DNA of 64,000 nt, the filler included, from Stramenopiles sp. TOSAG23-6 (Eukaryota): assembly GCA_900128565.1 (NCBI GenBank). It is 17 parts of 17 records of this genome, joined end to end, with 100 filler letters (N's around TTAATTAATTAA, not from the genome) between each part and the next. Parts side by side here need not be neighbours in the genome. Positions count along the whole stretch, not along the records: positions 7,584 to 11,271 come from LT637405.1; 16 more parts are not named here. One strand, written 5' to 3'. Within the stretch, counting starts at the first letter, position 1; each line of letters begins with the position of its first letter. Both the position numbers and the translations under genes were made by a program. Shown piece by piece: positions 1 to 45,219 of the stretch. Below the pieces are notes generated by a model. The model did no database searches and was not told the origin of the DNA. It saw only the letters and a list, made by a program, of their open reading frames with translations.

Positions 1-52
1 ACGAAATTTCGTACCTAACGATTTTTTTTTGAAATATTTTTTCACAATACGT

Positions 53-2923
53 GTTCCGTCACATTTAGTCCGTCCACGTGTAATAAATGATGGTGAAGGA
101 CTTCACAGTCGTCGTACTTCTATCAAAAAGGTAAAAAAGAAAGGAGCTGGTGGTTTAATGGAGGCATTATTTGGTGATTCTCAAATACGCGCAGAAATTG
201 AAGAAGAAATTAATGCAGATTTAGCCTCTGTAGAAGGTATTGCATGGGCAAAGTCGATGGCAAATGCCGCGGTCGCTGCAGTCGCAAGTGCAAAAACAAC
301 AAATTCGCAAACTCAAAAAAACGTAAATGTTGTTGAGATGATAGATAAAAATAATAGACAAACTTCAAATGAACAAACTACAAAAGTAGAATCTAAAAAC
401 ACTAGTTCAAAAAATAATGCCGTTCCCGCTATAGATATAATAAAAAATAAAGTGGAAGTAGTAAAAGAAGAGATAAATGTAAAAAAGAATAATGTAACAA
501 ATAAAATCGATACAACAAATGAAACAATTCAGGAACCTAGGAATAAAATCGATACAACAAATGAAACAAGTCAGGAACCAATTCAGGAAACTAGAAATAA
601 AATCGATACAACAAATGAAACAATTCAGGAACCAATTCAGGAACCTAGGCGACCCATTGTGTTAAAAAGAAAGAAAGTAACTATAAAATTAGGCCAACGG
701 CGTGTCCGTCTATGGGATGTTGCAAAAAGCCGCAAAATTACTTCTGATCAATGGCCAACTGTTAATAAACTATCAGTCTATTTAGATGATCATCCTACAC
801 ATGCTCCTATTTTAGATAGAGAACATCCAGGTTTAGCTTATGATGGTATGCGACATAGTCATGTCCACACTGAGAAATTAATAAAATGTCTACAAGAAGT
901 CAGAGTTGATGAACAAACTGCAGATAAACGTCGGAAAAAAATTCGTGATGCCAAAGCGTCTATATCTCAATCAAAGCAAACAGATGGGCGTAGACGAAAA
1001 AAATACGTGAAAGGTGTGAAGAAACAAAAAGCTTTAGAAAAAGTTCGTTTGTTTTTAAAGGACTTTCCTTTCCCCTCGTATGCTACCACGGCTGATACGG
1101 CAACATTTAACCGTAGTCGGGGTGTTAGGTCACTAATTCGTGCAGGACAGAAGTATAGCTTACAACATAGGAAAGGTGTTTATGCTGGAAAGCAACAAAT
1201 GGATATGAATACACAGTTACCGTACCAACGAATGTCTCAATTGTTTAATCAGCCCATGAATTATATGAATGTCGCAAACTCGTCTGGTCTTATGCCAGGC
1301 GCATGGTGTCAACCAATTGCAGGTGTGGGAAACATGTCTCATTATGGAGGTATGACTATGAGGCAAATGAATATTGGAAATAATGATCCTGGGATGTCTG
1401 GGATGTATTCTCGTCATGCACAATTCCAACAAGGATTATTTGCTCAACAGAAAGCATATCAACAAATGGTGCTCGATTTACAGCGAATGGCAAATCCTCA
1501 TGGACCAACAACGAATACGCCTGAAAATAATAGTCCTACTGATGGTAGTGGAAATGCAATAAATGACTCAGTTGGTGTCGATGGAAATGTTAATAATAGT
1601 ACTCAACAACAACAACAACAACTTCAAAGACAGCAACATTTGTTACTCTATCAAAATCAACTACAGCAACAACAGGCTGCCTTCCAACAGCAAGCTGTTC
1701 AAGCTGCCTTGATTGAAAAAATTCAGCAACAACAGGCTTCACATGCTACTATGATGCACCATCAAGCCGCACAAGCTGCTTTCATAGGTAAGTTACAGCA
1801 ACAACAACAGCAACAGGCGACACAAGCAGCTTTAATTGAAAAAATACAACAACAACAGGACCAGGATGCTTTGGTGAGTTCGAAAAATGCTCCTATGGAG
1901 ACAAATATTAAATCAACGAGTCAAAGTGAGCAACAAGATGCTCTTGAAAAAGTGAAACAACAATCTCTTTCATCAGAAACAAATGTTCCAAAATCTATGA
2001 TTGGTACAAACAATAATCCACAGTTCATTGGAAATAATCAAAATGTTCAAAATGTTCAAAATGTTTTAGCTCTTGAAGGTGCTTTGAGTGCTTCTGTAGA
2101 AAATGCCAAAAACTTTGTTCAAACCGAAAATGAAGATATCATTTCGAGTGGCCATCAGAAAACTACAGAATCTGTAAATGATGGTATTACAAAAGGTAAT
2201 GAAGGTAGTGTAATGGAAAATGTCTCAACCGTGGCAAAACCTACTAATGAGATTATTCCTGATTCTACTGTAAATGAATCATTTAACCCTAACCCTTCTG
2301 CTACTTCTACTGTAAATGAATCATTTAACCCTAACCCTTCTGCTACGATGCCTTCAAATCCAACTCCCTTGATTCCACAAACTTTCAACCCTGGTTTTAA
2401 TGGAATTCCAAATTTGTTTCAAATTCCTGGAAATGTGTCAAATGCTGCGGCAAATTACCAAAGAATGTTGATGCTTTCTATGATGTACAACCCCCAACAA
2501 ATGGCACAAGCCCAGATGTATGCTCATATGCAGCAACAGCAACAGCTACAGCATTTAAAACAGCAACAATTACAGCAGCAGCATATTCAGCAACAGCAAC
2601 AACAGCAATTGAAAGAACATCATTTATTTGAACAGCCAGTAGAAGTACAATCAAAACATATGGATACAGAAACACAAGCTACTGAAAATTCACCTACGAA
2701 TGAAGATAACAAAGATGTTTTACAATCTGAAGACCAAATTGAAAATTCACCTGTACATGAAGAAAATAAAGATATTTCAAAATCTGAAAATTCACTCATA
2801 AATGAAGAAAACAAAGATATTTCAAAATCTGAAAATTCACCTATAAATGAAGAAAATAAAGATATTTCAAAATCAGAAGAAGAGCCACAACAGGAAGAAA
2901 TTATCCAAAAAAACGTAAAATAA
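53..2923 (+). CDS. Terminal exon of a large Q/N-rich protein with a BRK-like domain (CHD7/kismet/BRM-type C-terminus)
   Basis: Long ORF starting after an intron 3' end (AATACGT|GTT at 52/53). GQRRVRLWDVAKSRKITSDQWPTVNKLSVYLDDHPTH resembles the BRK motif; poly-Q tracts follow. Confidence 0.6.
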   Translation, partial: VPSHLVRPRVINDGEGLHSRRTSIKKVKKKGAGGLMEALFGDSQIRAEIEEEINADLASVEGIAWAKSMANAAVAAVASAKTTNSQTQKNVNVVEMIDKNNRQTSNEQTTKVESKNTSSKNNAVPAIDIIKNKVEVVKEEINVKKNNVTNKIDTTNETIQEPRNKIDTTNETSQEPIQETRNKIDTTNETIQEPIQEPRRPIVLKRKKVTIKLGQRRVRLWDVAKSRKITSDQWPTVNKLSVYLDDHPTHAPILDREHPGLAYDGMRHSHVHTEKLIKCLQEVRVDEQTADKRRKKIRDAKASISQSKQTDGRRRKKYVKGVKKQKALEKVRLFLKDFPFPSYATTADTATFNRSRGVRSLIRAGQKYSLQHRKGVYAGKQQMDMNTQLPYQRMSQLFNQPMNYMNVANSSGLMPGAWCQPIAGVGNMSHYGGMTMRQMNIGNNDPGMSGMYSRHAQFQQGLFAQQKAYQQMVLDLQRMANPHGPTTNTPENNSPTDGSGNAINDSVGVDGNVNNSTQQQQQQLQRQQHLLLYQNQLQQQQAAFQQQAVQAALIEKIQQQQASHATMMHHQAAQAAFIGKLQQQQQQQATQAALIEKIQQQQDQDALVSSKNAPMETNIKSTSQSEQQDALEKVKQQSLSSETNVPKSMIGTNNNPQFIGNNQNVQNVQNVLALEGALSASVENAKNFVQTENEDIISSGHQKTTESVNDGITKGNEGSVMENVSTVAKPTNEIIPDSTVNESFNPNPSATSTVNESFNPNPSATMPSNPTPLIPQTFNPGFNGIPNLFQIPGNVSNAAANYQRMLMLSMMYNPQQMAQAQMYAHMQQQQQLQHLKQQQLQQQHIQQQQQQQLKEHHLFEQPVEVQSKHMDTETQATENSPTNEDNKDVLQSEDQIENSPVHEENKDISKSENSLINEENKDISKSENSPINEENKDISKSEEEPQQEEIIQKNVK

Positions 2924-3103
2924 TAATTGTAAGCAGAGTCACTCAAAAAAACGTAAAATAATAATTGTAAGCAGAGTCACTTGAATTTAAATTCAACGTC
3001 ATAATGAAAAAATGATAAATCAAATCAAATGGAATGAGAGTAATAAAGTCCCTTATATAACTTGAATAATAAATTACTCTCAACCGTATAAATCTTTTTA
3101 ATT

Positions 3104-3640
3104 TCAAATATCTTTCCAATAATTTTTTAGAAAATCGCGCATACACTGTACAATATTTGAATGATCTACACTATTGGACGACTCATGGCGCCAAATTACT
3201 GTACCGTTCTTTTTCGAATCGCTTGAATCATTTGATGTCATGGCTATCAGCACATACGAATTATTTATCTGTGATTCATCTAATTCAATTGAAAAAATCA
3301 CATTCCATTTTGATGATTGCAAAGTATGTGGTAAATTCACTCTTAAAAATTTCTTTTCTCGATGCACAAAAACACAATTATTCGCAACACTAATTGAAGA
3401 CTTTTGTGTTTTTTTATCCCATGATGTCCAAATTTTCCTTTTTGAAAGCACAATCATGAGTGCGTGACGTTGTAGCAACTGTAAGCATACAATAATAGAA
3501 CATATTGTGAAAAATAAAAAAAAATAAAAAATCGTTAGATACAGAATTTTCATAGTAAAAATGAAAGAATAAAAATTGAAATAACGTACATGCTCAACGA
3601 GAATAGAATGCAGTTCATTCGTGGATTTCAGGGAGCGTCC
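3104..3640 (-). CDS. 3' exons of an unknown protein (exons 3640-3590 and 3499-3104)
   Basis: Frame is kept after removing family intron 3500-3589; no family recognised. Confidence 0.5.
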   Translation of the reverse strand, partial: GRSLKSTNELHSILVEHVRYFNFYSFIFTMKILYLTIFYFFLFFTICSIIVCLQLLQRHALMIVLSKRKIWTSWDKKTQKSSISVANNCVFVHREKKFLRVNLPHTLQSSKWNVIFSIELDESQINNSYVLIAMTSNDSSDSKKNGTVIWRHESSNSVDHSNIVQCMRDFLKNYWKDI

Positions 3641-3694
3641 ATGTATTTTGGAAAAATATTTGAAAAAAAAAAAACTAAAATTTGTTAGGTACAA

Positions 3695-3794
3695 NNNNNN
3701 NNNNNNNNNNNNNNNNNNNNNNNNNNNNNNNNNNNNNNTTAATTAATTAANNNNNNNNNNNNNNNNNNNNNNNNNNNNNNNNNNNNNNNNNNNN
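3695..3794. other. Artificial contig linker (N44-TTAATTAATTAA-N44); 16 such linkers split the window into 17 contigs
   Basis: Identical 100-nt spacer recurs every ~3.77 kb, and contig length decreases along the window. Confidence 0.98.
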
Positions 3795-7429: not shown

Positions 7430-7648
7430 GTATGTTTTATTTTTTTTTCAATTTCGAATTTATTTTTTTTCGTACGAAATTTTNNNNNNNNNNNNNNNNN
7501 NNNNNNNNNNNNNNNNNNNNNNNNNNNTTAATTAATTAANNNNNNNNNNNNNNNNNNNNNNNNNNNNNNNNNNNNNNNNNNNNTTTTTTTTCGTACGAAA
7601 TTTTGTACCTAACAAATTTTACAAAAAAAATATTTTTTCACAATACTT

Positions 7649-10600
7649 GCGTGTTGAAAAACTAAAAGTAAAAAATAATCCTATCCAAACCATGGAAAAG
7701 ATAAAGTCAAAAACTGAAGCGGAATATCAAGTGACTATTGCAACTTTGGAAGAAAAAGTTGACGCATTGGTAAAGACAATAAATGAATCAAAACACAACA
7801 ATAGTGAAAATATGGAATTTACAATGCGAGGGTTACAGGAGAAAATATCAGAATGTAACTCCCTTCAAGATTCAAATTCAAATTTAGAGTTACAAATAAA
7901 AAGATTACAGAATAAGATCAACAACATGAAAATTGTACATGCAAATGAGAAAGAAATAATCAAACAAGATGTACAAACTGAATTTAAAAACTTTCGTACT
8001 CAAACGGAAAATAATGAAACAAGAGCTCGTGGAACTGTCATGTACGTTTTCAAAATTGAATGTAAATGTTTTTGTGTACCAAAATTTGTACCTAAGAAAA
8101 AAATTGAATGTAAAATATTTTTTCACAATACATGTATGTTTTTTTTTTTTTCAATTTCAAATTTAGTTTTTTTTCGTACGAAATTTCGTACCTAACGACT
8201 TTTTAATGATTTCGTGTTTTTTCACAATACATGGAGCTTGAAAAACGTTTAGCTCTTGCTATCAAGAAATATAAACTTGGCGAGGAACGTTATAATGAAA
8301 GTATCAATAAGCAAAACAATCATTTTTTAGAATGTATGTTTTATTTTTTTTCAAATTCGAAGTTTTTTTTCGTACGAAACTTTGTACCTAACAAATTTTA
8401 GTTTTTTTTTTTTCAAATATTTTTCCAAAATACATTATCTTTGAATGCAGATAAAATAATGAAAGAAGCTGCGGCAGATTTACGGTTGAAAAAATTTTCT
8501 GCTTCATCAAGTGACAAAAATAAAGAAGCAAATGTTGAATTTCAAGTGGCTAAATTAAAATTTGCTGTAGCAAAAAAAGAATGCGAAGTTTTATCTCGTT
8601 TGAAATCAATCTATGTAGAATTTCAAGTAAAAAATATAAATAAAGATGATATTGACAATAATATCATTTCTGAAATAAATATGACTACAGAAACGGCAGA
8701 TCAACATATTGAAAAATCAGGAAAATCACAAGAAACTACATCGAATCAAAAATTATGTGTACTTAAAATACAACTTGATAAAGTATTGCAAGAAAAAGAA
8801 GAAATGGAAGAACGATATGAAAATAATATACGTGTATTAAAAGACACAATACGTGAATTATCTATTCCTCCCTGGTTGAGTTGTGTTTTTCCAGATGACT
8901 ATGAAAACAGTAAAACAAAATCGCAAAAATTATCTACTACTACAGGTGTGAATAGCGATAGTACACATACATATTATAACTATGGATCTGGACAAGACAA
9001 TATGAGTCATATAAATGAAGAAAAACTTCCATGTCAAAATTTTGTACCAAAGAAAACTCCCGATGATAAAACACCATACAAAAGTCTTTCTGAACATTTT
9101 AGAATTATATGTCAACGCCAAGCATTTGAAATCGTCAAGATGCGCCAAGGTTTAATAAAAGTGTATAGTGATCACTCAATATCCATAAGGGAATTACAAA
9201 AGATGTTGCATAACAAGAATGAAAAGATAAATCAATTAAATCAAAATTTATTTGAGAAAGAAGAAGAAATTGCTAATTCTAGTCGGAATCTATCGAAAGA
9301 AGATTTTTTAAAACTTGTCCCATTAGGTATTAAAGAAAATGTAGCCATTAGAATGCGTGATTTAAGTTTGATGCTTACACAAATGGAAACATTGAAAAAT
9401 CGCTATGAAAGTCGCGCGGAACAGTTATCATCCTCTATCACGTCCGTCACTGAAACACTTAGCCAAACAGAAAATATGCTTGAAGCAGCTACGCGGAAAA
9501 TAGAAGCACTTCGATTAGCTCTTGCGTTCTCCAATATTCCTGATTCTATGATTTCTCGATTACTCGAAGCAATGGAAACGATGTCAAAAGAATGTAATAC
9601 AAATATTTGTGATTTGCAAACAAATCATCAAGATTTTCTTCTGAATAAGTCGAAAGATATGAGGCCAATCCTAGCTCTTTTAGATACGTTACGTATCGTT
9701 CAACCACGAGGCAAACTTCCTCAGACAGAGTGTATAGATTCATCTTTGTTAAACGAAAGTATGTCTGGGAATAACATTGGAAAGCGTGTTTTTGTTGAAG
9801 AAATGGTAAACAAGGGGAAAAGTAATAAAAACAAGAATATAGAAGATGTATACCATAAGATTACAAAAGGGACAAAAGCGCGTCGACTTCGCGTAGCATA
9901 TTCCATGAATAAAAGTTCAATAGATAATTCTCAAATATCAAATGAAAAGGTTATCAAACATGCAATTGGTAAAAACAAATATCAAAATAATATGGCAGAA
10001 GCAAGAAAAAGTGCTGCAGCATCTGCGACGACATTCGCAAGAGCTAGTCGATGGACTGCAACGAACAACACGAAAAATAAAAAAGCTGAAAGTAAAATAG
10101 GTAATACACATTCATCACAAACACATGTCTCGAAATCTAAATCAAATAAAACATATAGTGATATTTATGATGCTCAAATGTCTACATCAAGGGATACTAT
10201 TATCAATGAAATATCATTAGCAATTCGTCAAATTTCATATCGTGCTGAAGCATTAGAATCATTGCTTATTCAGAGTGAATCAAAACGTTGTAATAGTTTA
10301 GTCTCTTCTGCAACCTCAAAACTAGAGCAAGTTATAGAAAAGATAGCAATTCAACAAGCTGAGTCCGTTGTTAAAACAGATGTATTGAATCGCCTTATAA
10401 ATCAAGTAGATAAATCCTCTGAAATTTTGATGGCACTCTCTGCAGCGGAAGCTCGAGCAGAAGTAGCTGAAAGCGAATTGGAAAAAGTTCGTGAAGCTGA
10501 AAGATTTCGCGCTAATGTTGCAGAAGAAGACAGATCAAAATGTGAACTGAAATTATCATTAAAAGAACGCGAAATGGAAAATTTAAGAATTCAGAATGGA

Positions 10601-10903
10601 CAATTGACTTTATCACTTCAAGAAAGAACAACACAAGTTGCTGTTTTGACGGATGCATCAAATGCATTGAGCGGAGTCCACTCGGAAGATTTATCTCCTT
10701 CAGTCCCACCAAAAATGTCTGAAATATTGGAATCTCACAATGATGAAAGCATACAACAAGTCATTGCTAATCTTACATTGCATGCTTTGAATTCTTCCTC
10801 ACTTGAAAGTAATACAAGGAAAGAAGTATTGTCGCTTCGAATTCAAATTCGTGAATTAATTATTGAACAAGAACAATTAAGAAGAGAAGTTAATAGGTGG
10901 CGC
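7649..10903 (+). CDS. Large coiled-coil protein (partial; exons 7649-8041, 8233-8333, 8436-10903)
   Basis: E/K/L/Q-rich heptad ORFs join in frame after removing introns 8042-8232 and 8334-8435. Confidence 0.7.
8042..8232 (+). mobile_element. Two abutting family introns (8042-8133 and 8134-8232) with no exon between them
   Basis: GTCAT|GTACGT..AATACAT|GTATGT..AATACAT|GGAG; each unit has its own core motif. Confidence 0.8.
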
Positions 10904-11006
10904 GTATGTTTTATATGAATTTCTAATTTAATGGGTTTTTTTCGTACGAAATTTCGTACCTAACAAATTTTAGTTTTTTTTTTTGAAATATTTTTTCATA
11001 ATACAT

Positions 11007-11250: not shown

Positions 11251-11432
11251 TAAAAAAAAAAAAAAAAAAAANNNNNNNNNNNNNNNNNNNNNNNNNNNNN
11301 NNNNNNNNNNNNNNNTTAATTAATTAANNNNNNNNNNNNNNNNNNNNNNNNNNNNNNNNNNNNNNNNNNNNTTTTTCGTACGAAATGTTGTACCTAACGA
11401 ATTTTTTTTTGAAATATTTTTCCAAAATACAT

Positions 11433-30089: not shown

Positions 30090-30307
30090 GTATGTTCTTT
30101 TTTTTTTTTTACAAAAAAATTCGATTTTTTTTTTCGTACGAAATTTTGTACCTAACAATTTNNNNNNNNNNNNNNNNNNNNNNNNNNNNNNNNNNNNNNN
30201 NNNNNTTAATTAATTAANNNNNNNNNNNNNNNNNNNNNNNNNNNNNNNNNNNNNNNNNNNNAACAAATTTTAAAAAAAAAAAAATTTAATATTTTTCCAA
30301 AATACAT

Positions 30308-31391
30308 GTCAAGGTCTGATGTAATTTGTCCTATTTTTATAACAAGTAATGTAACTGGACGAGGTGTAACTGATCTTCGTGATTTTTTATCTTTGTTACG
30401 GAAACCACCAACGAAGGAAATTTTTGGGAGTAATCAAAGAAAATCACGAAATCTTGAAAAACTAAAAGCAGAAAAAAGTAATCTTTTGAAAAAAATGAAT
30501 TCTTGTAGTTTGAATGATTCTGTTCTGTCAGCTAATGTTGCAATTGATACAAAGACAAATATGAACAGTGTGAAAAGTACTTTGAAAAGTACTTTGAAAA
30601 AGAAAACGAGTCCTCCACTATCTGCATTTTCTGTTGGAAATAAAAACGAGTTTAATCCACAACCAATTTCAGATGGAACAAATTCTAGTGCTAGTGAAAA
30701 TTCTACTTTAGGCGTTTTTCAAATAGATTCAACATTTAGCGTCGTTGGTGTTGGCTTAGTTGTATCTGGGTCAGTATTTCGTGGAAATTTTACATTAAAT
30801 GATACTGTTATTTTAGGACCTGACAAAGCAGGTCAGTTTGTCCGTGTTGTTATTAGAGGGATTCATTCCAATCGTGTTCCAGTGCCTACTATAGGTGCTG
30901 GTCGTTGTGCTTCTTTTGCTATTCGTTGTGCATCTAAACGAGGTTCTTCGAGATCAATTAGTAGAGACACAATCCGTAAGGGGATGATGTTACTTGATGA
31001 GTCTACACCAAAGGATAAACTATGTGCACGGACATTCGAAGCAGACGTTGTTATNTTACATCACCAATCTACTATTGGAGTTGGCTATGTTCCAGTAATT
31101 CATATAGGATGTGTACGTCAACCTGTTCTAATTACAGAGATTAAGGTTATTGACAAGCGTAAAAAAAGAAAAGTAAATGGAAGTCNTACNATGAATGCAA
31201 ATCTAAATGAACAATCTGTACAATCGACAAGATTGCGTACTGGGGATCGTGCAAAAGTTGTCTTTCAGTTTGTAAATTACGCCGAATATGTTGAATTAGG
31301 TCAGTTATTGTTGTTCAGAGAAGGATCTGCAAAAGGTATGGGTCAAATATCACGTATTATTGAACCGACAGGAACAATCCTGTTGCGATAG
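30308..31391 (+). CDS. GTPBP1/GTPBP2-like translational GTPase, terminal exon
   Basis: PIFITSNVTGRG, FSVVGVGLVVSG, LRTGDRAKVVFQF, LLFREGSAKGMG. Confidence 0.88.
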
Positions 31392-31701
31392 ATTTTTAGA
31401 AGAAAGAATGAAGAAGAGAATGCAGTACTCATGAAAAAGAGTACCTAACAATATATAATGAAAAATGTAGAGGCAATGAACTAAAATAATTTTGTTTTGT
31501 GTATACTANATATAGATATNGAATAGTAATGATATTATAGCTGCTATATATAGATATTGAATAGTAATGATATTATAGCTGCTATATATAGTGTATACTT
31601 AAAATTTATTAGGTACGAAATAATGTATTCCCAATATATTGTACATTGTAATATAAGTAATATAGAATATAATAATTTTTGATTGTTTTATGTTAGAAAA
31701 T

Positions 31702-33845
31702 TTATTTTTCAACATTATTTTCATACCATTGAATTTTCTCTTGCAGAGTTGATATCATCTTTGACTGTTTGTCAGAAGCAACACGAAATCCATTAATTTT
31801 CATATCATGCTCTTTTTTGATGTCTTCAATGTCCTTCGTTTTTTTCTGTATTTCAGATTTCAAAAATGAAATTTCTTTCATATATTTTTCTTTCATTTCG
31901 TCCAATTTTTGAAATGTTTTTTTTTCTTCTTTTCGTTTTAAAATTGCAAAATTTCTCTGAAATTTTAATTTTTCCTCCATAACGCAATTTTGTATTGATT
32001 TATTATTTTCATCAATTGTATTCGATTTCGAAAAATNTGTACCAAATTTTGTAGTTGAGTAATTTTCAATATTTTTTTCAGAGGACGCTATAGCTCTTTT
32101 TCTAGATAATCCAGGTGTTGTAAACCGCAGCGAGGAGTTTGGTGTTGTGACTTGCACATACTTAATATTGTCACTATTACAAGTNACTTCGTGAGNCTGT
32201 TTTTTTATATTTGGTGTTGTTACATTTTCAGGACGTTTCATGATTTCATTGAACTTTTTTTTTGGTGTATACAAACTTACATCATTTACATTATTTTTTT
32301 TATACGAATTTTCATACGAAATTTGATGTTCACTTGTTTTCATAACAGAAACATNTTTTGTACAATTTTGTATAGAACTCATTGCATCAAACTCTCTACG
32401 TGCAAATTCCCAGTCAACTACAAAAAGATCATCATCTATATTATTTCGTGTTTCATTGAAATGTACTGTATTTCGTGTTTCACATGGATTTTGGTACACT
32501 AGAAAATGGTCATTTCCTAAAATAATTCTGTCATTATGAAACAATACAGTAGATGAAAGTTCATTAGTAATTGAATATCCATTGACATATACCACTGCAT
32601 TAGGTGCAGCAAATATTGTCGTTACAAAAACCATTTTATTTTTGTCCAACAAATCAATTTCCTTATTTTTCATGTTTTTTTCAATCAAATCCATTGTCTT
32701 ATTTTTCGTGTTTTTTTCTTCCATCAAATTACCATTTCGACCTGTACCATACATTTCCCTTGCTTCAGAAATAGGTACATGAAAAATTTGTAATACGCAA
32801 TGTTCTGCTAAAATATTTTTGCCAATTAACAAAATGTCAGATTTTGAAGATTTTCGTGTTTTTAGATTTCGTGTTTTTGTGTCCGTTGTCGTAATATGTT
32901 CATGAATTGGTTGAAAATTACTATCACTACCAATACACGTAAATGTACCTAATGGATACTGTAACGATCTTGAAAAGATTGGATCAGGATTTAAATTTAA
33001 TAAAAAAGGAAAAGAATTTTTCAACGAAGAAGTTGTTGGTGACGTCATACTGTCTGGTGACGTCATAGTGTCATTATTTTGTACTACTATATTTTTTTCA
33101 TGTTTTTTTTGAGATGAAATAATTCCTTTTGATACTATTGCATATTCATTAGCCATTGCTATATTGACATTTTCGCTCATCTCAATAATAAGAGCCTCAC
33201 GATCATTTAATGCTTCTCGTAAACGTTGATTTTCTTCTTTCAGTATATTTCGTTTTTCGTGTTTTTCGTATTTTTTATCCAATTTGGAATTTCTATCATT
33301 TAATTTTATTTTCAACTGAAGTATTTCTTGACGTAAATGACGTACTAAAATCATATCATCATTTTCATTCACAGACACACGATTTATGACTTCTTTTGCT
33401 CTTTCTATATAGCGTAACGTATTTAAGGTTTCTTCATAATATATATCTGCAGGGCATATTGTTGCCAACATGAAATTTTGTGAAAATATTTCAAAACATT
33501 TTGATGTTTTTTTGTTAGGTACGAAATGTACTACAAAAAAAAATTTCAATTTTTTTTTACATTAATTTTTTTTGTTTTTTTGTTTTTTTGTTTTTTTGTT
33601 TTTGTTACACATTTGTCTATAAAAATACATATATGAACAACATACATAATTGTTTTTGAATTTCCACCCAATGACTCTTTTAAAAGCCATGTAAGTACAG
33701 AATTTCTATACGGAATAAATGAATTTTTTTTTGTATTTTTAGACGAGAGTGAAAGGATGACGTCACCAAGAGCTGATAATGATTTATTTATACAAACGGC
33801 TTCTTTTGTAGTGCATTGTACTGTATTTCCAGTATTTATACTGAG
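31702..33845 (-). CDS. Kinesin-3-like motor (end of motor domain, FHA-like region, coiled coil); intron at 33470-33645
   Basis: [50 protein letters not shown]. Confidence 0.88.
33470..33645 (-). mobile_element. GT-AT family intron in the kinesin motor domain
   Basis: ATTAT|GTATGT...TTTCAT|GTTG restores KTIMLAT. Confidence 0.85.
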
Positions 33846-34081
33846 AAAATATTGTGCAATAATAATTCTTTGTTAGGTACAATACAAAAATACAAAAATA
33901 CAAAAATACAAAAATACAAAAATACAAAAATACAANNNNNNNNNNNNNNNNNNNNNNNNNNNNNNNNNNNNNNNNNNNNTTAATTAATTAANNNNNNNNN
34001 NNNNNNNNNNNNNNNNNNNNNNNNNNNNNNNNNNNAACAAATTTTAAAAAAAAAAAAATTTAATATTTTTCCAAAATACAT

Positions 34082-35165
34082 GTCAAGGTCTGATGTAATT
34101 TGTCCTATTTTTATAACAAGTAATGTAACTGGACGAGGTGTAACTGATCTTCGTGATTTTTTATCTTTGTTACGGAAACCACCAACGAAGGAAATTTTTG
34201 GGAGTAATCAAAGAAAATCACGAAATCTTGAAAAACTAAAAGCAGAAAAAAGTAATCTTTTGAAAAAAATGAATTCTTGTAGTTTGAATGATTCTGTTCT
34301 GTCAGCTAATGTTGCAATTGATACAAAGACAAATATGAACAGTGTGAAAAGTACTTTGAAAAGTACTTTGAAAAAGAAAACGAGTCCTCCACTATCTGCA
34401 TTTTCTGTTGGAAATAAAAACGAGTTTAATCCACAACCAATTTCAGATGGAACAAATTCTAGTGCTAGTGAAAATTCTACTTTAGGCGTTTTTCAAATAG
34501 ATTCAACATTTAGCGTCGTTGGTGTTGGCTTAGTTGTATCTGGGTCAGTATTTCGTGGAAATTTTACATTAAATGATACTGTTATTTTAGGACCTGACAA
34601 AGCAGGTCAGTTTGTCCGTGTTGTTATTAGAGGGATTCATTCCAATCGTGTTCCAGTGCCTACTATAGGTGCTGGTCGTTGTGCTTCTTTTGCTATTCGT
34701 TGTGCATCTAAACGAGGTTCTTCGAGATCAATTAGTAGAGACACAATCCGTAAGGGGATGATGTTACTTGATGAGTCTACACCAAAGGATAAACTATGTG
34801 CACGGACATTCGAAGCAGACGTTGTTATNTTACATCACCAATCTACTATTGGAGTTGGCTATGTTCCAGTAATTCATATAGGATGTGTACGTCAACCTGT
34901 TCTAATTACAGAGATTAAGGTTATTGACAAGCGTAAAAAAAGAAAAGTAAATGGAAGTCNTACNATGAATGCAAATCTAAATGAACAATCTGTACAATCG
35001 ACAAGATTGCGTACTGGGGATCGTGCAAAAGTTGTCTTTCAGTTTGTAAATTACGCCGAATATGTTGAATTAGGTCAGTTATTGTTGTTCAGAGAAGGAT
35101 CTGCAAAAGGTATGGGTCAAATATCACGTATTATTGAACCGACAGGAACAATCCTGTTGCGATAG
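34082..35165 (+). CDS. GTPBP1/2-like terminal exon (duplicate contig)
   Basis: Identical to 30308-31391. Confidence 0.85.
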
Positions 35166-35475
35166 ATTTTTAGAAGAAAGAATGAAGAAGAGAATGCAGT
35201 ACTCATGAAAAAGAGTACCTAACAATATATAATGAAAAATGTAGAGGCAATGAACTAAAATAATTTTGTTTTGTGTATACTANATATAGATATNGAATAN
35301 TAATGATATTATAGCTGCTATATATAGATATTGAATAGTAATGATATTATAGCTGCTATATATAGTGTATACTTAAAATTTATTAGGTACGAAATAATGT
35401 ATTCCCAATATATTGTACATTGTAATATAAGTAATATAGAATATAATAATTTTTGATTGTTTTATGTTAGAAAAT

Positions 35476-37619
35476 TTATTTTTCAACATTATTTTCATAC
35501 CATTGAATTTTCTCTTGCAGAGTTGATATCATCTTTGACTGTTTGTCAGAAGCAACACGAAATCCATTAATTTTCATATCATGCTCTTTTTTGATGTCTT
35601 CAATGTCCTTCGTTTTTTTCTGTATTTCAGATTTCAAAAATGAAATTTCTTTCATATATTTTTCTTTCATTTCGTCCAATTTTTGAAATGTTTTTTTTTC
35701 TTCTTTTCGTTTTAAAATTGCAAAATTTCTCTGAAATTTTAATTTTTCCTCCATAACGCAATTTTGTATTGATTTATTATTTTCATCAATTGTATTCGAT
35801 TTCGAAAAATNTGTACCAAATTTTGTAGTTGAGTAATTTTCAATATTTTTTTCAGAGGACGCTATAGCTCTTTTTCTAGATAATCCAGGTGTTGTAAACC
35901 GCAGCGAGGAGTTTGGTGTTGTGACTTGCACATACTTAATATTGTCACTATTACAAGTNACTTCGTGAGNCTGTTTTTTTATATTTGGTGTTGTTACATT
36001 TTCAGGACGTTTCATGATTTCATTGAACTTTTTTTTTGGTGTATACAAACTTACATCATTTACATTATTTTTTTTATACGAATTTTCATACGAAATTTGA
36101 TGTTCACTTGTTTTCATAACAGAAACATNTTTTGTACAATTTTGTATAGAACTCATTGCATCAAACTCTCTACGTGCAAATTCCCAGTCAACTACAAAAA
36201 GATCATCATCTATATTATTTCGTGTTTCATTGAAATGTACTGTATTTCGTGTTTCACATGGATTTTGGTACACTAGAAAATGGTCATTTCCTAAAATAAT
36301 TCTGTCATTATGAAACAATACAGTAGATGAAAGTTCATTAGTAATTGAATATCCATTGACATATACCACTGCATTAGGTGCAGCAAATATTGTCGTTACA
36401 AAAACCATTTTATTTTTGTCCAACAAATCAATTTCCTTATTTTTCATGTTTTTTTCAATCAAATCCATTGTCTTATTTTTCGTGTTTTTTTCTTCCATCA
36501 AATTACCATTTCGACCTGTACCATACATTTCCCTTGCTTCAGAAATAGGTACATGAAAAATTTGTAATACGCAATGTTCTGCTAAAATATTTTTGCCAAT
36601 TAACAAAATGTCAGATTTTGAAGATTTTCGTGTTTTTAGATTTCGTGTTTTTGTGTCCGTTGTCGTAATATGTTCATGAATTGGTTGAAAATTACTATCA
36701 CTACCAATACACGTAAATGTACCTAATGGATACTGTAACGATCTTGAAAAGATTGGATCAGGATTTAAATTTAATAAAAAAGGAAAAGAATTTTTCAACG
36801 AAGAAGTTGTTGGTGACGTCATACTGTCTGGTGACGTCATAGTGTCATTATTTTGTACTACTATATTTTTTTCATGTTTTTTTTGAGATGAAATAATTCC
36901 TTTTGATACTATTGCATATTCATTAGCCATTGCTATATTGACATTTTCGCTCATCTCAATAATAAGAGCCTCACGATCATTTAATGCTTCTCGTAAACGT
37001 TGATTTTCTTCTTTCAGTATATTTCGTTTTTCGTGTTTTTCGTATTTTTTATCCAATTTGGAATTTCTATCATTTAATTTTATTTTCAACTGAAGTATTT
37101 CTTGACGTAAATGACGTACTAAAATCATATCATCATTTTCATTCACAGACACACGATTTATGACTTCTTTTGCTCTTTCTATATAGCGTAACGTATTTAA
37201 GGTTTCTTCATAATATATATCTGCAGGGCATATTGTTGCCAACATGAAATTTTGTGAAAATATTTCAAAACATTTTGATGTTTTTTTGTTAGGTACGAAA
37301 TGTACTACAAAAAAAAATTTCAATTTTTTTTTACATTAATTTTTTTTGTTTTTTTGTTTTTTTGTTTTTTTGTTTTTGTTACACATTTGTCTATAAAAAT
37401 ACATATATGAACAACATACATAATTGTTTTTGAATTTCCACCCAATGACTCTTTTAAAAGCCATGTAAGTACAGAATTTCTATACGGAATAAATGAATTT
37501 TTTTTTGTATTTTTAGACGAGAGTGAAAGGATGACGTCACCAAGAGCTGATAATGATTTATTTATACAAACGGCTTCTTTTGTAGTGCATTGTACTGTAT
37601 TTCCAGTATTTATACTGAG
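35476..37619 (-). CDS. Kinesin-3-like protein (duplicate contig)
   Basis: Identical to 31702-33845. Confidence 0.85.
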
Positions 37620-37991
37620 AAAATATTGTGCAATAATAATTCTTTGTTAGGTACAATACAAAAATACAAAAATACAAAAATACAAAAATACAAAAATACA
37701 AAAATACAANNNNNNNNNNNNNNNNNNNNNNNNNNNNNNNNNNNNNNNNNNNNTTAATTAATTAANNNNNNNNNNNNNNNNNNNNNNNNNNNNNNNNNNN
37801 NNNNNNNNNTTAATCCATACAACCGAAAAGCGACAGAAAAGAAACTTGGACAAGATGAATTAAGTAATTCATGTATTTTAGAAAAATATTTCAAAAAAAA
37901 AAAAAATATTTGTTAGGTACAAAATTTCGTACGAAAAAAAAATTCGATTTTTTTTTTTTTTTTTCGGTTAAAAAAAATAAATAAAACATAC

Positions 37992-42037: not shown

Positions 42038-42332
42038 TGAAAGATAATCCTATGAATAAAACACTTCGTCAAAACTATTATTACAGGTCAGTGTCTAAAA
42101 TTGCAAATGCAAATTAGCTAACTCAATGTGAATCTTTTAGTTATTTTCTGAACGAGGAGCATTCTACTACTAGCTAGGTACTAAAAATCTACGTGACGGA
42201 ACAACTTGCAAGGGAATTAGAGGAGCAAAGGAGCGTATCAAAAACATCAATTTTCAAATGGTCAATTTTGTCAACTTTGGAATTTGGGCACGTAAAAGTA
42301 AAACAAAAGGGCAATAACTGGACTAAGTTACA

Positions 42333-43736
42333 ATGAATGGCACGGACGATCCTATTACTATTGCGACGCCAAGTACAGGAACACTTGCCAGAAAATCCTC
42401 TAAAATTGAGTGGGCTTCTCGGCCCGATTTATTGAAACAAGCTTTTTTGGTGAAGAATGCTAGTCGTTCCAACACAAATGATATTGGCGGTTCGAGAACA
42501 AACCTACACCTTGGTCTCGGAAAGCCCGTTGTGAGGGATTTACGTGGGCGAGAGATGGCGGCTTATGTTTTGGAGACAGTAATTCTTATAGTCGTTCTAT
42601 CATACATTGGAGTTATGGTTTTTGCCAATAAAATATGTGAGCTGTCATACGGAGCAGATGGGTGTGGTCGTTCACTGGACTATGCACTCGATTATACTTT
42701 ACCTGGTGGTGACACTATGAGAAATGGCACAATTTCACATGAAACGCGCTGGGATGATCCGAGTTATATAAGTGACAGAGCCCGCCTCGTGCGCCGTGCT
42801 TGTTTGTTGGGCATGAACTTGATGGAGTGTGATTTTGGCCGAAGACTTGTCGTTGCGACAATCGGTGGTGCCATCATTGGATTTGAAAGACGCCTTGCCG
42901 ATCGCCCGGCTGGAATACGAACAATGAGTCTCACAGCATTAGGTGCAGCAATTTTTACTTTATGTTCTACGTGGGCATTTATGGCTGGACCGCAGAAATG
43001 GGACGCTTCTAGAATATCAGCTGCGATACCAAGTGGAGTTGGATTTCTTGGAGCTGGTTTGATTTGGAAAGGTACCACAAAAGATGAAGAGCACCATACA
43101 GTCCATGGTCTTACAACTGCGGCTTCGCTTTGGATATCTGCAAGTGTTGGTATAAGTTGTGGCGGTGGACTATACTCTGCCGGAGCAATTGGAGTCGCAC
43201 TTACGCTTATGATATTGAGGTATGGTCCTCGATTGTACCTTGGTCAGTTTGAAGACGATCGCATGGAGCATTTTGAAGATGGCGAAGAGAACCTTTATGA
43301 TTTTGATGCAGATGATGGTGATATACCAGATGATAATAAAGACGGAGAATGGCTATCAGGAAATCATACAGTACTGCCTGTGTCTGAGGAGGAATCAACA
43401 AAAATGTCGTCAAAAGGAGGGAAAGAGATATTGAGAGAGTCTATCGGTAGGCGACGACTTTCTATGAATAATATGCGACATGGGGTACGTAATGGCGGTA
43501 TACGTAGGGATACAGGTCACTGGGTTGATGCAAATGATTTCTTTGCAACACATGATTCTGCTACAGCAAACACAACCCGCAGAGAGTCGCGAAAAAGTCA
43601 GCCCCGAAGAAGCATGAGTATTGGAGGTGAAGGAGATTTTCTATCAAATCAGCCGCGTCGTCGCAGACGATTAAGTAGACGTACAAGCCTTCTCAACAGA
43701 CCCGATCACGCCCATGTTTTTTGTGCCGATACTTGA
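42333..43736 (+). CDS. MgtC/SapB-family membrane protein
   Basis: IGFERRLADRPAGIRTMSL, DASRISAAIPSGVGFLGAG, GLTTAASLW. Confidence 0.9.
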   Translation: MNGTDDPITIATPSTGTLARKSSKIEWASRPDLLKQAFLVKNASRSNTNDIGGSRTNLHLGLGKPVVRDLRGREMAAYVLETVILIVVLSYIGVMVFANKICELSYGADGCGRSLDYALDYTLPGGDTMRNGTISHETRWDDPSYISDRARLVRRACLLGMNLMECDFGRRLVVATIGGAIIGFERRLADRPAGIRTMSLTALGAAIFTLCSTWAFMAGPQKWDASRISAAIPSGVGFLGAGLIWKGTTKDEEHHTVHGLTTAASLWISASVGISCGGGLYSAGAIGVALTLMILRYGPRLYLGQFEDDRMEHFEDGEENLYDFDADDGDIPDDNKDGEWLSGNHTVLPVSEEESTKMSSKGGKEILRESIGRRRLSMNNMRHGVRNGGIRRDTGHWVDANDFFATHDSATANTTRRESRKSQPRRSMSIGGEGDFLSNQPRRRRRLSRRTSLLNRPDHAHVFCADT

Positions 43737-44153: not shown

Positions 44154-45219
44154 ATCAGCTAAAACACCATATTCATTTTCTCCAAAGCCAAAAACTCTGC
44201 CATCCTTTTTTAATACAAGAGTGAAATATGTACCGGCACTGATGCTCACATTATCATTATTTAAATCAGTGTTCATTACAGGTGATAATCTTTGGTCAAA
44301 TGTGCCATCTCCAAGTTCACCTTCCTTATTCAAACCAAAACTGAATACTTGACCCATATTTTTGTTATTGGGTAACACACAACTTCCATCATCTTGAAGA
44401 GCTTTCGGATCATAATTTAATGCATTTGGATCGGTACAACCAGGTCTTTGTAAATAACCTTTTATAGCCTTTTCCATCACAGTAGCTAAATCATTTATTT
44501 TTGTATCCTCTTCCCATGGAGATTGTAATATCTCAGAAAGTGGAATTGCTTGCACGTTTAAGCATGCAGGGCCACTCATATTTTGAACACTTTTAGCCCA
44601 TTTAACCCAATCCGTTTGAGATTCAATTTCACCACCATGAACAACAATATCACCACCAGTAGTATCCTTTTTATATGTATTATCTACCTCATGATCACTA
44701 TCAATCTTAGTAGAAGCAGTGGCAACTTTTATTTTAAAAGCAATGTTTGCTTGATTTTCAACAAAACTTGATGATTTTTGGTCGACATATTGCATAGAAT
44801 TAAATGATGTTGCAGTCATAGCGCCACCGATAGTACATCGAGTGGTAACATGAGTACCCCATTGATCAAGAAATGCATCGAATTTATGTTTTGTCTCTTG
44901 AGTATAATCAGATGGAAGTCTAGACAACAGTATCTTAAACATTGGCGTGAGACTGAAAAAACCAGGGAATATTTGAATGTCAAGTTGTTGGCACATCGCG
45001 CGAGCTACAGTCACAGTCGTTTCATCGCTTGACATGTATTTTGAAAAAATATTTCAAAAAAAAACTTAAATTTATTAGGTACAAAATTTCGTACGAAAAA
45101 AAAAATCATACAAAAAAAAAGTAAAACATATATCATTGATCTTACATGTTTTGAAGTGTGTGTGTACGCTCCAGAAATATTAGCGAAAGAACCGCCGAAA
45201 CTGACGGTAGAAGTAGTCG
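44154..45219 (-). CDS. MACPF-domain protein followed by an RCC1-like repeat (partial); intron at 45034-45131
   Basis: FLDQWGTHVTTRCTIGG MACPF signature; GCTDPNALNYD..A..DDGSC; FSFGLNKEGELGDG. Confidence 0.8.

Follow-up and report, generated by a model that had tools for sequence, protein, structure and literature searches.

Two abutting copies of a putative intron-forming element with non-AG ends in a gene of a MAST-3-like stramenopile

Bursts of intron gain are at present best explained by transposon-made introns and, to our knowledge, the consequences of such elements at saturation have been little described. Here we analyze a doublet of abutting introns at 8042-8232 (+) in a 64-kb stretch of DNA, hereafter the window, that appears to come from an uncultured marine stramenopile of the MAST-3 kind. 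Both units of the doublet belong to a family of short introns that is abundant in the window and whose members do not end in AG. The doublet is real in the assembly. We propose that it arose by two insertions of a mobile, intron-forming element at one site and that the two units are removed stepwise, a joint reading to which we assign a probability of about one half.

Among described systems, the closest are the introners of Micromonas, Aureococcus, Florenciella and dinoflagellates (PMC9860276, PMC11282704); this comparison and those that follow draw on parts of the cited sources. Like introners, the family in the window is multi-copy and sits in introns of unrelated genes, carries some or all of its splice signals, and occurs at a density of about one per kb. 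Two features of introners, many similar copies in unrelated genes and a target duplication at the borders, are found here. Unlike introners, however, the intron's 3' end is the duplicated target (mostly AT) and not AG, the target duplication is 2 nt compared with the 3-9 bp reported for introners (PMC9860276, PMC11282704), the inverted termini extend over only ~4 nt (GTAT...ATAC), and the host appears to be a MAST-3-type heterotrophic stramenopile. A second parallel comes from the larvacean Fritillaria, whose spliceosomal introns are non-AG and transposon-like and have pyrimidine-A-pyrimidine as their last three bases (PMC13326754, PMC11282704). The introns of the window share this end, the frequent occurrence of the triplet upstream as well, a 3' AT class, a U-rich tract and a transposon-like origin. 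They differ in their near-perfect GTATGT or GTACGT 5' end, in contrast to the AG of the dominant Fritillaria classes, and in being hosted by a protist and not a tunicate (PMC13326754). The likeness is one of convergence, not of membership.

Two further systems resemble the arrangement of the doublet itself. Zero-length exons are known from recursive splicing in Drosophila, vertebrates and S. pombe (PMC8605326, bioRxiv 10.1101/226894), where, as here, a 3' site lies directly against a 5' site, and a 5' site is re-formed at the junction created when the upstream part is removed. The known sites are AG/GT, lie mostly in very long introns (336 nt in S. pombe) and are not transposon pairs, whereas the site in the doublet is CAT/GT within a total of 191 nt, and its stepwise use is a prediction. 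The stwintrons of fungi (PMC8469720, PMC9024468, PMC12403724) are likewise two spliceosomal introns at one position that need to be excised consecutively, and some form repeated families of similar sequence. In stwintrons, however, one of the outer intron's splice signals is split by the inner intron, which forces the order of excision, while the units described here abut, are complete and leave the order free.

We therefore rejected the stwintron as a class for the doublet, as the 5' site, core and 3' end of each unit are uninterrupted. Nonconventional introns of the euglenid type were rejected as well, given that no stable pairing of the intron ends was seen in folds of five family members and of the doublet region. 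U12-type AT-AC introns are marked by a 5' /ATATCCTT together with a U12 branch motif. Slid by 2 nt, the introns of the window do read AT...AC, but their 5' end is ATGTATGT and their core is TACCTAAC, and this class was also rejected. In the literature we found no mention of abutting introners, and the words "tandem" and "nested" do not occur in the main texts of two introner surveys, whose supplements may hold more. We likewise found neither this family nor non-canonical introns of MAST-3 described, with the same proviso for supplements; the available text of the MAST single-cell genome paper (PMC5778133) contains "intron" twice and "splice" never. Searching full-text literature for the family motifs as strings returned only unrelated primer matches.

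The doublet and its gene

The doublet lies inside a single assembly contig (7584-11271). Across it the sequence runs from the exon (...GGA ACT GTC AT) through the two units to G GAG CTT, with zero bases between the units, and CAT precedes all three junctions (8039-41, 8131-33 and 8230-32). A preliminary description of this locus, made from the sequence, had proposed two complete introns back to back, and our profile of the family (~100 positions) bears this out at full length: unit 1 (8042-8133, 92 nt) matches positions 15-100 (E = 1e-10) and unit 2 (8134-8232, 99 nt) matches positions 1-99 (E = 5e-14). Abutting 3' and 5' splice sites thus stand inside the removed sequence (CACAATACAT and then GTATGT, at 8133/8134). 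The earlier wording of a zero-length exon is accurate in that no base lies between the units, but due to the repeated AT the intervening exon is equally describable as 2 nt (AT) between an AT...AC and a GT...AT intron, with the same mRNA as the outcome.

Removal of all 191 nt yields GTC ATG GAG in frame, in agreement with the preliminary description, and joins 152 open codons in phase to 55. Taking out unit 1 alone leads to stops inside unit 2, and taking out unit 2 alone causes a frameshift; the ~970 open codons across three exons are obtained only if both units are removed. The features of this contig, all on the + strand, are as follows, with the basis of each in brackets.

7584-7648 (+): family intron truncated by the contig start, of which the 3' part remains, located in the 5' untranslated region (profile positions 29-99)
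7692-8041 (+): exon 1 (orphan gene, coiled-coil-like), which begins with ATG and ends with ...GTC AT (152 open codons upstream of the junction)
8040-8041 (+): AT, putative exonic copy of the 2-nt target (sequence, target-duplication comparison)
8042-8133 (+): family intron 1, 92 nt, with GTACGT (8042-8047), core GTACCTAAG (8088-8096), T-run and CACAATACAT (8124-8133) (sequence, motifs, profile, site scores)
8134-8232 (+): family intron 2, 99 nt, with GTATGT (8134-8139), palindrome TTCGTACGAA, core GTACCTAAC (8188-8196), T-run and CACAATACAT (8223-8232) (sequence, motifs, profile, site scores)
8233-8333 (+): exon 2, 101 nt, whose sole open frame is the one set by removal of the 191 nt (frames)
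8334-8435 (+): family intron 3, 102 nt (members, frames, profile)
8436-10903 (+): exon 3, 822 codons from 8438 (open frame)
10904-11006 (+): family intron 4, 103 nt; one codon and two stops come after it (members, profile)

The junction between the two units stands out in the window. A pattern of core, 3' end, 5' end and core matches only once, and not at all in 100 shuffles. When the junction pattern is loosened there are 17 matches (11.4 expected), and only the one at 8127-8139 lies between two family copies. All four splice sites of the doublet are of good quality: at 17.7 and 18.4 bits, the two 5' sites exceed those of 15 of the 19 other members, and the 3' sites, each at 25.4 bits, exceed those of all 19.

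The intron family

To describe the family as a whole, we built the profile from 21 complete copies. Its members, all of which are 89-135 nt long, share an order of elements that begins with GTAYGT and a T-run, often continues with the palindrome TTCGTACGAA, and passes through the branch-like core GTACCTAAC and a T-rich stretch to ...AATAC plus 2 nt. The core (at most one mismatch) has 76 matches in the window compared with 5.9 expected and a maximum of 13 in 100 shuffles, and the 3' motif CACAATACAT has 33 compared with 8.7 expected. A profile search gave 59 hits. Once two redundant contigs are dropped and multi-core hits are merged, 53 non-redundant loci remain in 50,284 bases. In the DNA run X1, 8,089 of 119,919 contigs map to the 3.7-kb stretch that holds the doublet, nearly all of them on family segments. 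The family core pattern has no match in viral contigs or in prokaryote genome contigs.

The ends of the family introns are distinctive. GT starts 20 of the 21 members (GTATGT in 12, GTACGT in 4, and a near variant otherwise), while not one of the 21 ends in AG and 16 end in CAT; CAT or TAT stands upstream of the intron in 9 of the 21. In 15 of the 21, a set that includes both doublet units, the 2 nt before the intron are the same as its last 2 nt (13 AT, 1 TT and 1 AA), and the TT and AA cases indicate that the repeat is a duplicated target and not a fixed signal. From these sequences, the intron would therefore comprise both the element (GTAYGT...ATAC) and a single 2-nt target copy. Among the 15, C is found at -3 in 7 and G at +1 in 9, compared with a background of 16%, a context that could reflect insertion preference or selection for splicing. 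The inverted termini are consistent over 4 nt only (GTAT...ATAC), and folds pair 4 bases at the ends. None of five members has a significantly stable fold (z = -0.17, -0.60, 0.03, -1.72 and -1.85), and the 231-nt doublet region has no significant structure either (z = 0.26). Based on the GTAYGT start, the yeast-like core, the T-runs and the lack of a significant fold, we take the family elements to be spliceosomal introns. One member at 45034-45131 (-) has ATATGT in place of GTATGT at its 5' end and frames in phase on both sides (35 and 320 codons), and is a candidate A-starting intron.

Support for exact removal of family introns comes from the reading frame and from one junction that could be checked with homologues. 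Open codons number 30 or more on each side of 17 copies, and in 14 of these the longest flanking frames are in phase after exact removal (chance 1/3, P = 5e-5). The homologue-checked junction is the intron at 17002-17101 (-), which lies in a gene (15682-17878, -) with a fatty-acid-hydroxylase (sterol methyl oxidase-like) domain fused to 3-beta-hydroxysteroid dehydrogenase, a fusion that is also present in the proteins P0002, P0004 and P0007. Exact removal of this intron gives a product that is colinear and gap-free with these three homologues, and the removed piece can only be GT...AT or, slid by 1-2 bases, TG...CA or AT...AC, and never GT...AG. The public model P0001 translates through the intron and is without the upstream half and its first domain; a family intron with a non-AG end explains both the read-through and the lost half of this fused sterol enzyme.

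Some family introns are compound. At 14137-14307 (-), a 171-nt intron in a CCHC zinc-knuckle gene (flanks of 99 and 239 codons in phase) has two cores, both the rare GTACCTAAT, has its 5' 20 nt twice, and has no usable inner 3' or 5' site (...TTATTTCGAT/ACGTTTT); it may be an old doublet with decayed inner sites or an internal duplication. At 60653-60952 (+), a 300-nt family intron has four cores in tandem, spaced by ~50 nt, and the frames of 61 and 29 codons on its two sides are in phase. The family intron at 61539-61640 (+) has two cores.

Origin and removal of the doublet

Identity between the two units of the doublet is only 54%. Higher values are found with introns in other genes, namely 86% for unit 2 with 17002-17101 (-) and 69% for unit 1 with 13110-13205 (-), and the units belong to different sub-types (GTACGTTTTCAAAATTGAATG... 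versus GTATGT with a T-run). The preliminary description had called the units mutually divergent, which these values uphold, and had named a join of two alleles as the case that would undo it, which they speak against. That each partner is closer to copies elsewhere points to two insertions and not to a recent tandem duplication or a two-allele join. We consider it quite probable, judging from the sequences, that the doublet represents two separate insertions into one AT. The proposal that AT at all three junctions reflects a second insertion in a duplicated target likewise fits the 2-nt duplications of the family. Tandem duplication of one resident intron followed by divergence would also leave AT at all three junctions, and the compound intron at 14137-14307 (-), whose halves share their 5' 20 nt and the rare core, looks like a product of such an event; given the identities and sub-types of the doublet units, however, we regard this origin as extremely improbable here.

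We propose the following scheme. A short, non-autonomous, intron-forming mobile element would have inserted twice at the same AT of a protein-coding exon. Each element would supply GTAYGT as its 5' splice site, GTACCTAAC as a branch-like core, a T-run, and ...ATAC as its terminus, and insertion would duplicate 2 nt of target, such that the removed intron is the element plus one target copy. An intron that includes one target copy ends in AT (or another target) and not in AG. An inserted element would then be flanked on both sides by a used target in the context C-AT-G, where a later copy may land to give AT-element-AT-element-AT.

How often should such pairs arise? Given 53 loci, random re-insertion into the 5,039 AT sites of the unmasked window would produce ~0.55 abutting pairs, and by a rough estimate nearer 2 if the C/G context counts. 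One doublet per window is thus about what is expected by chance at the density of the family, and the doublet would be a by-product of dense mobile introns and not a special device. Because one intact doublet fits saturation, many more are predicted genome-wide. Contigs that join 7646 to 8332 or to 8331 (15 and 4 contigs, respectively, in DNA run X1, and 14 and 6 in the independent seawater metagenome X3) place a family 3' end beside the AT and GTATGT of a family 5' end. Their sides are shorter than 30 letters and the intervening letters are undefined, and as a weak lead they may be other doublets in the genome. A scan of metagenome contigs with the doublet pattern, in a collection that may not include the organism, returned 6 loci, none of which is family-related (G+C of 41-49%, other repeats).

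If the gene is functional, the doublet must be cleared either recursively or as one 191-nt piece. This alternative, posed in the preliminary description, still stands, and no spliced RNA contig was found for either route. In the scheme that we favor, ordinary short-intron splicing would clear the pre-mRNA in units of ~95 nt, sequentially and in either order. Excision of unit 1 would put the exon end ...CAT before the GTATGT of unit 2, and excision of unit 2 would put the ...ATACAT of unit 1 before the exon G. Each excision would thereby recreate a normal family context for the other unit, and all routes would lead to the same mRNA. Stepwise excision is favored by the four good sites, which are at or above the family median, and the ~100-nt length of single copies suggests that each unit is recognized across the intron. 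We infer that stepwise removal in either order is the most likely route.

The main rival to this route shares the same origin and holds that the 191 nt are removed in one step, using the outer 5' site (8042), the second core (8188-8196) and the outer 3' end (8232), with unit 1 being merely extra 5' intron sequence. The compound introns at 14137-14307 (-) and 60653-60952 (+) have outer sites only and long in-phase frames, and the core of unit 1 is a rare variant ending in G, both of which would fit this route. On the other hand, the fit of both inner sites to the family equals or exceeds that of most single members; going downstream from 8042, the inner branch core and 3' end come first; and the 21 complete single members are all 89-135 nt long. 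Weighing these points, we view one-step removal as rather unlikely.

Several observations weigh against the combined reading of two insertions and stepwise removal. The compound introns, with several cores, no inner splice sites and intact flanking frames, imply that removal of a long intron in one piece seems tolerated, which weakens the stepwise case. On the shared CAT, U1 binding to the inner 5' site would be expected to overlap with the factors that recognize the 3' site of unit 1, and the core of unit 1 is the rare variant GTACCTAAG. The gene has no homologues at E <= 0.001 (exon 1 was compared with longer proteins and exon 3 with proteins of similar length), so that the junction is fixed by frame alone, for which agreement has a 1 in 3 chance, and a Pfam search of its product found no family. 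Support for the join was checked with the assembled contigs of four runs (DNA and RNA), and 8126-8174 was skipped as a repeat. Among the contigs listed, no independent one bridges this stretch, and a false path through repeated element ends is accordingly possible. Lastly, the RNA libraries contribute a single listed contig at the site (X8, record 26), and it is unspliced over 8028-8125.

Based on the same contigs, we considered whether the doublet is an assembly artefact, in which one piece (exon 1 and unit 1) was joined via repeated element ends to another (unit 2 and exon 2) that belongs to a different locus or allele. Family copies are a frequent place for contig ends in this assembly, near-identical contigs are kept redundantly, and the unbridged 8126-8174 is where such a join would fall. 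The first of the X1 pieces (514 letters, 506 aligned), if colinear, would end at 8133, where repeat copies would diverge. X1 contigs among those listed nevertheless match 7620-8125 and 8175-8357 without differences, which ties each unit to its own exon. Moreover, a join needs reads containing ...ATACAT followed by GTATGT, the sole open frame of exon 2 is in phase with exon 1 and in the same orientation and continues into the 822-codon exon, units that are 54% alike are not alleles of one intron, and allelic variants in this assembly appear as separate contigs and not as head-to-tail joins. We therefore judge an artefact improbable. It is more improbable still that the gene is dead or the units remain unspliced, such that no special splicing is needed. 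This would be in keeping with a protein that has no homologue or Pfam family and with the unspliced RNA-library contig. Against it, ~970 codons are open across three exons at ~30% G+C, where stops are frequent, and RNA-library contigs lie on exon 3, although DNA carry-over is possible there. Spliced joints at the doublet, including 8041^8134 and 8133^8233, are absent from the listed contigs of the four runs, exon 1 (7707-7952) has no cover in either RNA run, and the pattern of RNA contigs at the site is evidence neither for nor against splicing.

A wider proposal, which we put forward tentatively and which may well not hold, is that an intron-forming transposon with non-AG ends fills the genes of this MAST-3-type stramenopile at about one copy per kb, and that abutting copies form a regular class and are spliced in two reactions. 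If true, it would be the ATAC terminus of the element, together with 2 nt of target, and not AG that defines the 3' end. As each copy recreates the preferred target at both its ends, abutting copies would be a regular class, amounting to ~1-4% of thousands of introns, and would represent natural, transposon-made recursive splicing in very short introns. This lineage would also be a second one, independent of the fritillariid tunicates, whose major spliceosome routinely accepts non-AG ends, and the public gene models available for the lineage would contain systematic errors at such sites. The intact doublet suggests that a gene can take two hits at one site with its frame kept, and offers a clean test of whether the short-intron spliceosome uses 3' and 5' sites that share nucleotides. 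Our analysis indicates that the family, with non-AG 3' splice sites in a stramenopile that public gene models have missed, is more notable than the doublet; due to such introns, gene catalogues of an uncultured, ecologically common lineage may be badly truncated.

Host, contigs and neighboring features

The window is composed of 17 contigs of 3.6-3.7 kb each, in falling order of length and separated by linkers of the form N44-TTAATTAATTAA-N44 (for example, at 3695-3794, 7484-7583 and 11272-11371), and its G+C is ~30%. The 3-beta-hydroxysteroid dehydrogenase open reading frame (ORF; 15682-17001, -) is 98% identical to a public protein with a source label starting GSMAST32, and its next named matches are from the stramenopiles Triparma, Fibrocapsa and Thalassiosira. 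From these matches and from our understanding of the label, we infer that the host is an uncultured marine stramenopile of the MAST-3 kind. A Fritillaria-type larvacean, suggested by the pyrimidine-A-pyrimidine ends and the 3' AT class, and a diplonemid were also considered as hosts and were rejected in view of these matches; an Atlas search for hints of the taxon was ambiguous, with clusters of Chordata and Euglenozoa each scoring 0.95. The contig that carries the doublet is present in DNA runs of a coded organism and in seawater metagenomes, and small parts of it are present in metatranscriptomes.

Many contigs start or end within copies of the intron family (for example, at 3694, 3795, 7584, 11372, 15057, 30161, 41580, 49010, 52771 and 56631), which indicates that the assembly breaks at this repeat. 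Two pairs of contigs are redundant: 30262-33935 and 34036-37709 are identical at 3673 of 3674 positions, and 1-3694 and 56631-60288 represent one locus (99.7% and 98.8% identity), their lengths differing by 36 nt within a repeat. These pairs are probably alleles or come from different cells.

Among other features of the window, a tRNA gene at 22711-22783 (+, 63 bits) occupies the first bases of its contig and is the sole Rfam match. An ORF with an MgtC-family domain at 42327-43736 (+) lies in a stretch of higher G+C (0.42); the MgtC family is mostly bacterial and is found here in a eukaryotic context, as the same contig carries a family intron. Finally, two short telomere-like runs (TTAACCCTAACCCTAAC) at ~62840-62900 (+) adjoin and lie inside a family-like element.

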